DNA of 64,000 nt from Promethearchaeota archaeon (GCA_029838195.1 JALGVJ010000012.1:1-64000); one strand, 5' to 3'. Counted from the stretch's first letter, positions 24,374 through 27,045 are shown. Numbers and translations: made by a program. Notes: a model not told the origin generated them from the letters alone.

Positions 24374-25345
24374 CTATTTTAATGAATTGAGGATATTTTT
24401 CATTTTAAGTTCGAATCCATCCTTTCTCTCAATAATTTCTTGAGAAGACGCATCAAACACCACTTTTAGATAATATGCTCTTTCACGAGCATAACTTTCA
24501 GCAAGAAATAAATATACTATTATCTTATTATCGCTTCTCTTCATGATGGGAAGAAGGCATTCCCATTTAGCAAAAAAGGGATATGATTTACTTATTTTTA
24601 ATGCTTTATTTAAGATATTATCTTCCAATGAATTTCTCTTAACTGATAAATTAAAAAGAGTCTCGTTTTTTTTCGAAAAAATGGATTTTTTATGTAATGT
24701 AAAAAAAAAATACTCATTATTTTCCATTCTTTCATGAACGTAATAAAAAAATGGCATAATTCCAGGAATATATCTTTGAGTAGAATTTAGCCGTGCGTAA
24801 ACCCCTATTTTTACAAAGATTTTAGAACCAAAGTAAAAAATGTAGAAATAGGTATAGATTTGAAAAATAAAAAGAAAAATTGCTAAGTTTCGGGTAATAA
24901 ATAGGACTAATAGAGAAATGGTAAAAAAGGATGGCGAAATGATAAATAAAATGGGATTTATTGCCCTATCGATGAAAATTCTATATCTTTTTTTAGAAAA
25001 AGGAAAAAATAAAGGAATTTTTGAAGCCGCCAAGCCATCTAACGATACATGTAAACTATAAAAAATGAAGGCTGAAAAAATAGAGAAAAGAATTGGCTCA
25101 TCGGTGATATAAGTAAAAAATAATCCCATAGGGATGGAAATAATTAATCCCCCAATGTAAGAATGGGAAACCCCTTTATGAGCTAAAAGAGGTTTTGATC
25201 TTACTTTCTTGAAAACATCTAAAAATACGTCTAAATCGGGGAAAATTGTCATGAATCCCGTAAACAAGATGAATTTAAAATCTAATATCCCGAAGAGAAA
25301 AATATTTAATATTAGCCCAATTAGTAAATGCGTGAAAAAATCCAT
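24374..25345 (-). CDS. Membrane-bound metal-dependent hydrolase (YdjM/DUF457 family)
   Basis: MDFFTH, FPDLD, HKGVSHS and HVSLD. Confidence 0.85.
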   Translation of the reverse strand: MDFFTHLLIGLILNIFLFGILDFKFILFTGFMTIFPDLDVFLDVFKKVRSKPLLAHKGVSHSYIGGLIISIPMGLFFTYITDEPILFSIFSAFIFYSLHVSLDGLAASKIPLFFPFSKKRYRIFIDRAINPILFIISPSFFTISLLVLFITRNLAIFLFIFQIYTYFYIFYFGSKIFVKIGVYARLNSTQRYIPGIMPFFYYVHERMENNEYFFFTLHKKSIFSKKNETLFNLSVKRNSLEDNILNKALKISKSYPFFAKWECLLPIMKRSDNKIIVYLFLAESYARERAYYLKVVFDASSQEIIERKDGFELKMKNILNSLK

Positions 25346-25770
25346 TTTAAATCTTGATTTCCCATTAATTTAAGATAATAAAGGAAAGCATTCATGAAAC
25401 ATTTAGATAAGGGGAGATGAGCGAAAAATGGTGCTGTGTCATATATTCAGTCAAATTAAATTGATATTTAGCTAAAAGATTCATGATTTAAAAAATGCAT
25501 CGTGATTATTAATAAGATAATATGATTCCATGGATTTTTGAAAAAATCGGTAAGACCATGAATATTTATTAAACAAAGAAAATTGAAATTTTAATCAATG
25601 AATCATAATATTAAAAATCATTTGCTTATAAAAAAAGGATAAAAATTTTTGTCGTATCAATTCCCTTTTTAAAGAAACTTAAAATAAATTAGTCTTGAAA
25701 ATATTTATTATCGTTTCTTTTTATTAAGTGAATAGCTTGAAAATAATCATGAGGAAAAAATAGTATAAGT

Positions 25771-27045
25771 ATGAAAAAACTAAATTCACGCGAAAGATTT
25801 TCGATGTATTTCAAAATGAATCCATTTTCGGAGATTCGTGTTGATAAGAAAGATATTTTTATTCGAAATAAATATGATGATATTTTAAATTATATCAAAT
25901 TAATCATTACTTCGCCAAAAGATACGGTATTACTTAATGGATTAAAATTAAAAGGAACACTTTTATTACATGTTCCTGAAGGAACAGATATTATTGAATA
26001 CATTAAATTAATTGCTAAAAATTATTATTTGAATATACTTGAATTAGATTTTATTGAAATTTCAAAAAATCCTCTCGATTTTTTTACCAATTTTCGCGAT
26101 TATTTTAGAAGGTTGTTAGAGAAATTTGATTCCTCTCATGAAGAATTACGTAAGGAGGAAGAACAGGAAATTAGAGATAATGCGGGTGAAGAATTAGAAA
26201 ATGTTAAAACCATTCTCCTTATTAATGAAAACAAAAGTATTTCCAAATATTTTAGAGATAAAAGCTTAATTGAGCAATTGATAATGTTCAATCTACAATT
26301 ACCCGAGACCATTGATTTCATTAAAAAGGGGCTCATATTAATCTGGATTAGTCATGAAATGAATGATATCATTGATAATTCTATTGAACTTTTGGAACTT
26401 TTTGATTTATTCATTAAAATCCCGCTTTTAAATGAGATTGAGCGGGAAACTTATTTAAAAGCGTTTTTAGAAAATAATAAAGAATTAACCTTCCATCTAT
26501 CTCATGTTTTAAACATGACTAAAGATTGGGAAATAAAAGAAATAGCTCATCTCCTTCGACTAGCCATAATAAAATATCATTTAAAATTTGAATTGAACAA
26601 CGTGAGTAATGAAATTACTGAAGTTATAAATGACATTATCAATGCAGAAGAATTAATTCCTTTAAATGCTAAGAGCCCCGAAAAAATAGTTGGAGAATCG
26701 ATTGATGCAGGTACATCCTCAGAGAGAAGAAAACTACCCATTGTTCAACCATTAAAACAAGAAGAGAAGGAACAGGGGCTAAAATCGTTTTTAAAGGAAT
26801 TAGAGGAGAAAAAATATCATGAATTTTTATCAGAACAACTTTATGAGGAAGCAGCTTCAAAAAATTATGAGGATTTGGTCATAATAATCGAAAAATTAAA
26901 TAAAAATGAAATTCTCGAAGATAATGCTAAAAAAATCTTAGCGAAATATCCTTTTATTTTAGCGGACACCCCAACCATGGCTCAAATCAAGCTAGAAAAA
27001 GCGAAAAAGAAAGTCGATTTCTTAAAACAAGCATTTAAGAAATAA
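25771..27045 (+). CDS. Degenerate (inactive) classical AAA+ domain protein with C-terminal helical extension
   Basis: KGTLLLHVPEGTDIIEYIKLIA is a decayed GILLYGPPGTGKT..AKAIA. ILLINE lies at the Walker B position and FDLFIKIPLLNEIERE matches RFD..I.IPLP...ER. Confidence 0.6.
   Translation: MKKLNSRERFSMYFKMNPFSEIRVDKKDIFIRNKYDDILNYIKLIITSPKDTVLLNGLKLKGTLLLHVPEGTDIIEYIKLIAKNYYLNILELDFIEISKNPLDFFTNFRDYFRRLLEKFDSSHEELRKEEEQEIRDNAGEELENVKTILLINENKSISKYFRDKSLIEQLIMFNLQLPETIDFIKKGLILIWISHEMNDIIDNSIELLELFDLFIKIPLLNEIERETYLKAFLENNKELTFHLSHVLNMTKDWEIKEIAHLLRLAIIKYHLKFELNNVSNEITEVINDIINAEELIPLNAKSPEKIVGESIDAGTSSERRKLPIVQPLKQEEKEQGLKSFLKELEEKKYHEFLSEQLYEEAASKNYEDLVIIIEKLNKNEILEDNAKKILAKYPFILADTPTMAQIKLEKAKKKVDFLKQAFKK

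Follow-up and report, generated by a model that had tools for sequence, protein, structure and literature searches.

The four-gene locus

The window analysed here is the whole stretch of 64,000 nucleotides from Promethearchaeota archaeon (GCA_029838195.1 JALGVJ010000012.1:1-64000), and the element in question is a gene, single-copy in its genome, which encodes an AAA-like protein of 424 amino acids (aa), P0001. The three genes behind it encode an SMC-family protein (SMC, structural maintenance of chromosomes; P0002), a kleisin candidate (P0003) and a kite-type winged-helix protein (P0004), and all four are on the same strand, separated by 20 bp, 32 bp and 15 bp in this order (Table 1). This is the arrangement that a first-pass annotation, made from the sequence of the window alone, had described in placing the gene at the head of an SMC operon. 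The results support P0001 as a catalytically dead relative of the classical AAA ATPases, and its gene occurs in strict order with a second type of SMC gene in Asgard archaea; with moderate confidence, we favour a role in the SMC complex itself.

Table 1. Features of the operon, of P0001 and of the canonical SMC locus of the same genome (positions in the window unless another locus is named)
Feature	Position	Strand	Remarks
YdjM-like gene	24374-25345	-	divergent from the operon
AT-rich intergenic region, 425 bp	25346..25770	.	5' of the operon; presumed promoter region
Gene for dead AAA-fold protein P0001, 424 aa	25771..27045	+	operon gene 1; open reading frame, homologues, model
Walker A remnant HVPEGTDII, aa 67-75	25969..25995	+	family consensus N-x-x-P-G-T-D-I-I; canonical GxxGxGK[ST]
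Acidic, poorly conserved insertion, aa 118-146	26122..26208	+	isoelectric point 4.5; pLDDT <50 at aa 122-142
Walker B remnant ILLINE, aa 148-153	26212..26229	+	canonical hhhhDE
Sensor-1 strand LILIWISHE and second region of homology ELLELFDLF (aa 206-214)	26332..26412	+	
AAA lid domain, aa 219-300	26425..26670	+	model; relatives match Pfam AAA_lid_3
Variable linker, predicted disordered, aa 301-349	26671..26817	+	pLDDT 25-45
Family-specific C-terminal helical domain, aa 350-424, 75 aa	26818..27042	+	model, conservation
SMC protein P0002, 1155 aa	27066..30533	+	SMC_N and SMC_hinge matches
Kleisin candidate P0003, 212 aa	30566..31204	+	named from position and size alone; matches no family
Kite-type winged-helix protein P0004, 174 aa	31220..31744	+	3/28 relatives match Pfam SMC_ScpB
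Canonical SMC locus (G000:C38), 411-aa open reading frame	L088:639-1874		
Canonical SMC locus, SMC	L088:2002-6465		
Canonical SMC locus, 354-aa helix-hairpin-helix protein	L088:9034-10098		
Canonical SMC locus, ScpB	L088:10121-10852		

Fold, motifs and lineages of the AAA-like protein

The AlphaFold2 model of P0001, built on a family alignment of 34 sequences, has a mean predicted local distance difference test score (pLDDT) of 75 and shows the beta-alpha-beta order of strands and helices of an AAA alpha/beta domain, then a helical lid; confidence is low at aa 122-142 and 302-349, and from aa 350 on there is a further, separate domain of helices. In a Foldseek search with this model, p97 D2, Msp1, Vps4, PAN and Rpt subunits stood at the top (E about 1e-7). 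Moreover, VIA-align of residues 5-303 gave Z scores of 14.6-15.6 with SPATA5, Vps4, spastin, katanin, p97 and PAN, in which 240-260 residues were aligned at a root-mean-square deviation of 4-5 Å. At the level of sequence, the scan of P0001 itself against Pfam and NCBIfam returned no meaningful family, and the profile of its family (34 sequences) had no match among the sequences of the PDB. The connection is made by the homologues of Thor type (L083, L085; 356-357 aa), which belong to another Asgard family and occupy the same operon position: the Thor homologue matches Pfam AAA (PF00004) with 43 bits and aligns with both D1 and D2 of Cdc48/p97 (E 1e-19), so that P0001 appears homologous to Cdc48/p97 transitively, via the Thor homologue. 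The evidence that P0001 has the AAA alpha/beta-plus-lid fold is thus clear. The first-pass annotation had recognised an AAA scaffold here and had proposed a comparison of a predicted structure with Cdc48, Vps4 and PAN; that comparison, together with the alignment of the Thor homologue to Cdc48, bears the recognition out. One of the Thor homologues (L085:1140-2207, TXT55942.1, Thorarchaeota) is named 'ATP-dependent zinc metalloprotease FtsH 4' in NCBI, which is a mis-annotation because the protein lacks both a protease domain and the P-loop lysine.

The catalytic motifs of P0001 have been replaced. The earlier readings of Walker A as lacking GKT, of Walker B as INE and of the Arg finger as missing (ELFDLF, aa 209-214) all agree with what we found. 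In addition, sensor 1 has Ser194 at the site where Asn is expected (WISHE), and there is no Arg in ELLELFDLF, which leaves the protein with no Arg fingers. The Walker A Lys and Thr are replaced in all members of Loki and Thor type and are intact only in those from Jordarchaeum and Freyarchaeum (Jord/Freya), while the P-loop remnant G71, T72 and D73 is invariant or nearly so among the homologues. Walker B also varies with lineage, being ILLINE in P0001, LINQ in most relatives, IER in Thor and IDN in Jord/Freya. Compared with Cdc48, the Thor homologue has GPPGTDF in place of GPPGTGKT in Walker A, IERIE in place of IDEID in Walker B and His in place of Asn at sensor 1; the stretch with FGR, which holds the Arg finger in Cdc48, is missing from it (deleted in the alignment), and pore loop 1 is absent. 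These replacements support the view that P0001 is a catalytically dead protein of the classical AAA fold.

Beyond the AAA core, P0001 has the acidic insertion and the C-terminal helical domain that the first-pass annotation had pointed out, the latter measuring 75 aa against the roughly 80 given there. Modelled alone, the C-terminal domain reached a pLDDT of 92.6 and is predicted to consist of a 39-residue helix, two short helices and a 23-residue helix; the last helix of the domain carries a conserved basic patch, LEKAKKR. Foldseek of the domain against the PDB gave no significant match (E >2), the best hit of a wide VIA-align search had a Z score of 4.9, which lies within the background for helical models, and the feature search of the Atlas gave no usable match. 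In the shape search of the Atlas, the good matches were Thor members of the same family and no others.

The family is well populated. A word-indexed search found 265 homologues, all unnamed or 'hypothetical' and all from Asgard metagenome-assembled genomes, and an exhaustive phmmer search gave 90 representative homologues, of which all those whose neighbourhood or source name was looked up are Asgard and SMC-linked. A word-indexed profile search was saturated with close relatives and had no extra reach. Across 34 aligned homologues, 50 columns are invariant, and the mean majority fraction is 0.84 in the C-terminal domain, 0.78 in the lid, 0.54 in the alpha/beta domain, 0.36 in the linker and 0.30 in the acidic insertion. 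Averaged over 32 loci, pairwise identity amounts to 0.53 in the AAA-like protein, 0.55 in the kleisin candidate and 0.63 in the SMC protein. By this pattern of conservation, the AAA-like gene encodes a constrained protein and is neither a chance open reading frame nor a decaying gene. A further count, in which a full-length profile matched in 371/400 Asgard genomes, was dropped as an estimate of distribution: its weak matches, at E 1e-8 to 1e-13, probably come from ordinary AAA ATPases, and a search specific for the C-terminal domain gave only 5/20 genomes of other families.

The homologues in Jord/Freya show that the loss of motifs is graded. The operon of Freyarchaeum deiterrae and Jordarchaeum opens with a gene for a protein of 459 aa with an N-terminal extension of 130 aa, and this gene stands at the same position, before an SMC gene and genes of kleisin size and kite size (for example WXG40903.1, 'ATP-binding protein', Ca. 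Freyarchaeum deiterrae). This protein aligns with the P0001 family over 304 profile columns, including the C-terminal domain (hhalign probability 98.9%, E 2e-17), and the Freya homologue matches Pfam AAA (PF00004) with 76 bits as well as AAA_lid_3. Unlike the Loki-type members, the Jord/Freya proteins keep the P-loop and the Arg finger, have DN in Walker B, bear the N-terminal extension and are encoded with a short SMC and, as neighbour, a ubiquitin-like cluster. GRSGTGKT, FIDN (the Walker B DN) and TRFD (the Arg finger) are invariant in 11 Jord/Freya clusters, where Asn is the consensus at sensor 1. With Asn for the catalytic Glu, these members probably bind ATP and hydrolyse it poorly. The SMC proteins encoded next to them (L177:4570-7077, L178:8377-10872) have 831-835 aa with SMC_N and hinge intact, compared with 1120-1155 aa in Loki and Thor, and hence their coiled-coil arms must be much shorter. 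Directly 5' of the Jord/Freya operon lie genes of a ubiquitin-like system, encoding JAB, ubiquitin, E2 (UQ_con), E1 (ThiF), RING proteins and an M48-RING protein (L179:3710-10079 in Ca. Freyarchaeum deiterrae, G117; L178:1075-6881 in Jordarchaeum).

At the other end of the series are two short forms from two other Asgard families (L175:987-1817, 276 aa; L174:4568-5515, 315 aa), which match only AAA_lid_3 and the C-terminal domain, most of the alpha/beta domain being gone. The lid and the C-terminal domain are, as judged from these alignments, the conserved core of the family and the element common to every lineage. Thus the claim of the first-pass annotation that the AAA protein is catalytically dead stands for the Loki and Thor types, in which all motifs are replaced, and fails for the family as a whole, because Jord/Freya members keep Walker A and the Arg finger. 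The graded series of motifs across lineages is new here. Running from an intact P-loop through fully dead forms to a lid with a tail, it shows a route from an ATPase to a structural subunit, and it points to the lid and the C-terminal domain as the part of first interest.

The obligatory first gene of an SMC operon

The linkage to the SMC gene was followed from both sides. Among 68 species-level genome loci chosen for the AAA-like gene, 65 have downstream DNA, and in 65/65 of these the AAA-like gene is followed immediately, on the same strand, by orthologues of the SMC, 212-aa and 174-aa genes of the window. Conversely, 80 metagenome loci were found via the SMC peptides GPNWSGKT and ILENFLSF; the AAA-like gene lies directly upstream of SMC in all 77 of those with at least 230 bp of upstream DNA, and in the other three the contig ends less than 100 bp from the SMC start. 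The same order holds in the Thor-type loci, in three further GTDB families, in Freyarchaeum and in Jordarchaeum, and it is also found with three distant homologues (428, 516 and 603 aa) that have little beyond the lid and the C-terminal domain in common. No locus examined in seven additional families or lineages departs from it. Furthermore, the stop and start codons of the AAA-like gene and SMC overlap by 4 nucleotides in several lineages. Since the flanking genes vary between loci, the four-gene block is the conserved unit, and the AAA-like gene is its obligatory first gene. One contig assigned to a 'Candidatus Nanopelagicaceae bacterium' metagenome-assembled genome (L058, DATKTW010000069.1) holds the full Asgard four-gene operon and is probably mis-binned.

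The presence of the gene was also compared with that of the SMC subtype. By the profile of the C-terminal domain, the family occurs in 5/20 genomes from other Asgard families, and in 5/5 carriers an SMC of the window type adjoins the AAA-like gene (E 1e-43 to 0), the canonical SMC of the same genomes matching at only about 1e-12. Four non-carrier genomes have SMC matches at the canonical level or none. The fifth apparent non-carrier, the Freyarchaeum genome G117, has a divergent AAA-like homologue beside a divergent SMC. In this small sample, the presence of the AAA-like gene follows the SMC subtype. The first-pass annotation had asked for adjacency and co-occurrence across Asgard lineages, and on both counts (65/65 and 77/77 loci, and a small sample of 10 genomes) the outcome is in its favour; the results support a link between the AAA-like protein and SMC as strong as gene context allows.

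As to the SMC itself, the motifs of P0002 are intact (Walker A GPNWSGKT, signature LSGGQ, Walker B MLDEA), and its scores against TIGR02168/02169 are about 200 bits, far under the family cut-offs. The canonical SMC of the genome is encoded elsewhere (C38:95528-99892) and has an ISHR H-loop and a ScpB (113 bits) about 4 kb downstream. The genome has just one more large SMC_N protein, which belongs to a cluster of HerA, Mre11 (Metallophos) and Rad50 (G000:C87, L087:37-5965). P0002 is therefore a second SMC paralogue beside the canonical Smc-ScpB locus. At the canonical locus, the genes for the 354-aa helix-hairpin-helix protein and ScpB lie 2.5 kb downstream of SMC. The open reading frame of 411 aa directly 5' of the canonical SMC was considered as a member of the AAA-like family and rejected (no known family; hhalign probability 0.2%).

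The first-pass annotation had spoken of an Smc5/6-like gene, and this label is not demonstrated by the comparisons made here. In a phmmer search with P0002, canonical SMC heads scored 61-50 bits, Smc6 45 and Smc5 28, values which are raw scores and not a phylogeny. Among the relatives of the kite protein, 3/28 weakly match Pfam SMC_ScpB (best E 8e-8) and 0/28 match Nse1 or MAGE, and the profile of the kleisin candidate has no match in the PDB or Pfam. The missing His of the H-loop was dropped as a mark of Smc5/6, as the canonical SMC of Pyrococcus, which is the best match, also lacks this His. A second kind of SMC-kleisin-kite operon, called 'SMC5/6-related' and made up of three genes, has been described in archaea of the TACK and Asgard groups (van Hooff et al., bioRxiv 10.1101/2024.01.07.573240; Yoshinaga and Inagaki, PMC8665677), and these papers give the same picture of two operons as seen here, one with canonical SMC and ScpB and one being the set in the window. 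The difference is that the published operons have three genes, whereas here there is a fourth, AAA-like gene, which always comes first; the word AAA is absent from the text of van Hooff et al. (bioRxiv 10.1101/2024.01.07.573240). No description of the AAA-like protein of the Asgard SMC operon was found in the literature searched, which was mostly without subscription journals. This fits the statement of the first-pass annotation that no AAA+ pseudo-ATPase is known to have been described as a subunit of Smc-ScpAB, MukBEF, Wadjet or Smc5/6.

A proposed accessory role and its alternatives

SMC complexes are built of SMC dimers, a kleisin and kite or hawk subunits, and their loaders and regulators vary by lineage and are poorly understood in archaea. 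To our knowledge, no SMC complex has an AAA-derived component. The operon offers a candidate fourth, AAA-derived gene beside those for SMC, kleisin and kite. With Cdc48/p97/VAT, Vps4, spastin, PAN/Rpt and AFG2/SPATA5 (PF00004 and AAA_lid_3), the P0001 family shares the alpha/beta-plus-lid fold, and it keeps the lid motifs. Unlike the Cdc48-type proteins, P0001 has a single AAA domain and no N-domain and has lost the catalytic motifs; it adds the acidic insertion, the disordered linker and the C-terminal domain of the family, and it is always encoded with SMC. Inactive subunits of AAA+ fold exist elsewhere, such as delta and delta-prime of the clamp loader and LAP1/LULL1 with torsin, in which the ATPase fold has outlasted the nucleotide chemistry and has a structural or regulatory role. 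These belong to other AAA+ clades and have other partners than the P0001 family, and we know of none among them that acts with an SMC complex. In its proposed role, P0001 resembles Nse5/Nse6, which loads eukaryotic Smc5/6 and inhibits its ATPase, as an accessory module, neither kleisin nor kite, that regulates an SMC complex. However, Nse5/Nse6 is an alpha-solenoid (HEAT-like) and P0001 is predicted to be an AAA fold with a small helical tail, and there is no homology between them.

We consider it moderately probable that P0001, of Cdc48-like descent, serves the second Asgard SMC-kleisin-kite complex as an accessory component without catalysis, be it as regulator, scaffold or recruiter. The protein of Loki type would neither bind nor hydrolyse ATP, nor would it thread substrates. 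Its function would reside in the AAA lid together with the C-terminal helical domain at the end of the flexible linker; this module may dock on the SMC holocomplex, with the dead alpha/beta domain serving as a structural platform. The ancestral form may be the one seen in Jord/Freya, with intact P-loop, Arg finger and Walker B DN, probably an ATP-binding and slowly hydrolysing switch, and the lineages of Loki and Thor type would then have fixed the AAA-like protein as a nucleotide-free subunit. An accessory factor of the SMC complex is what the first-pass annotation had inferred, with loader or regulator as candidate functions. The dead AAA fold, the strict gene order and the co-occurrence speak for the general part of this proposal. 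Binding to the complex would be a prediction from it, and the step of the SMC cycle affected may be loading, head engagement or ATPase rate, targeting or release.

Several points weigh against such a role. The association of the AAA-like protein with the SMC complex rests on gene context, and a factor that shares the regulation of the SMC genes but has its place of action elsewhere would also show such gene order and co-occurrence. The co-occurrence with the SMC subtype comes from 10 genomes, a small sample in which related genomes are not independent, and the C-terminal-domain profile used for it misses divergent members such as the Freyarchaeum homologue. In addition, none of the 90 phmmer matches, all of which have at most 623 aa, is a fusion of the AAA-like protein with a subunit of the SMC complex. 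The C-terminal domain has no recognisable fold, and thus no partner can be inferred from it. A complex prediction from alignments of 32 rows, in which the SMC head was divided into two pieces and combined with the kleisin candidate and the AAA-like protein, gave a score of 0.00 and a mark of 0.32, and weighs neither way.

Two other explanations seem to us unlikely, though they have some facts on their side. The AAA-like protein could, as an adaptor, connect the SMC complex with a genuine AAA machine or with a ubiquitin-like pathway. Its dead AAA domain would assemble together with Cdc48/VAT-type hexamers or imitate one of their protomers, and SMC complexes could in this way be extracted, unloaded or turned over. 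Its nearest relatives in sequence are D1 and D2 of Cdc48/p97, Cdc48 acts on SMC complexes in eukaryotes, a dead AAA+-like protein can be the partner of an active one, as with LAP1/LULL1 and torsin, and the operon of Freyarchaeum and Jordarchaeum directly follows the cluster for ubiquitin, E2, E1, RING and JAB. Nevertheless, the forms of Loki and Thor lack an Arg finger that they could offer to an adjacent protomer, nothing beyond ancestry links the AAA-like protein to Cdc48, and the ubiquitin-like cluster, which is known from two related genomes only, is not beside the operon in the window; we regard an adaptor as improbable. Alternatively, the protein could be co-transcribed with the SMC genes and yet be independent of the complex, for example a factor associated with DNA or chromatin, neither a subunit nor a direct regulator. 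Such a factor would be compatible with an association supported by gene context only, and the basic patch LEKAKKR might by itself bind nucleic acid. Against it stand the strict adjacency across classes despite variable flanks, the overlapping stop and start codons in several lineages, and the absence of the gene where the SMC subtype is absent in the tested sample, and on balance we do not expect it to be right. That the Loki-type protein is still an active enzyme, binding or hydrolysing nucleotide via non-canonical residues, is very improbable in spite of the near-invariant G71, T72 and D73 and of the full P-loop in Jord/Freya, as the Walker A Lys, both Walker B acids, the sensor-1 Asn and the Arg fingers are replaced in P0001 and some lineages keep the gene after losing most of the alpha/beta domain.

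An extension of the accessory role, which we hold to be rather a long shot, concerns its origin. The ancestor might have been a nucleotide-binding, Cdc48-like subunit that tied the second SMC complex to ubiquitin-like modification, and the Loki and Thor forms would be its fossilised, nucleotide-free versions. If true, the connection of Smc5/6 with ubiquitin/SUMO ligases and Cdc48 in eukaryotes would have a prokaryotic forerunner here.

Two minor observations concern the gene and its surroundings in the window. The genes flanking the operon encode an HD-domain protein, a radical SAM protein and an N6 methylase, with no evident link to chromosome biology. The gene calls in the databases for P0001 and for a relative of 91% identity (P0005/P0006) begin at Met16 and give products of 409-410 aa. 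Residues 1-15 of P0001 (25771-25815) are conserved among the homologues, and for this reason the ATG at 25771, rather than Met16, is likely the start.

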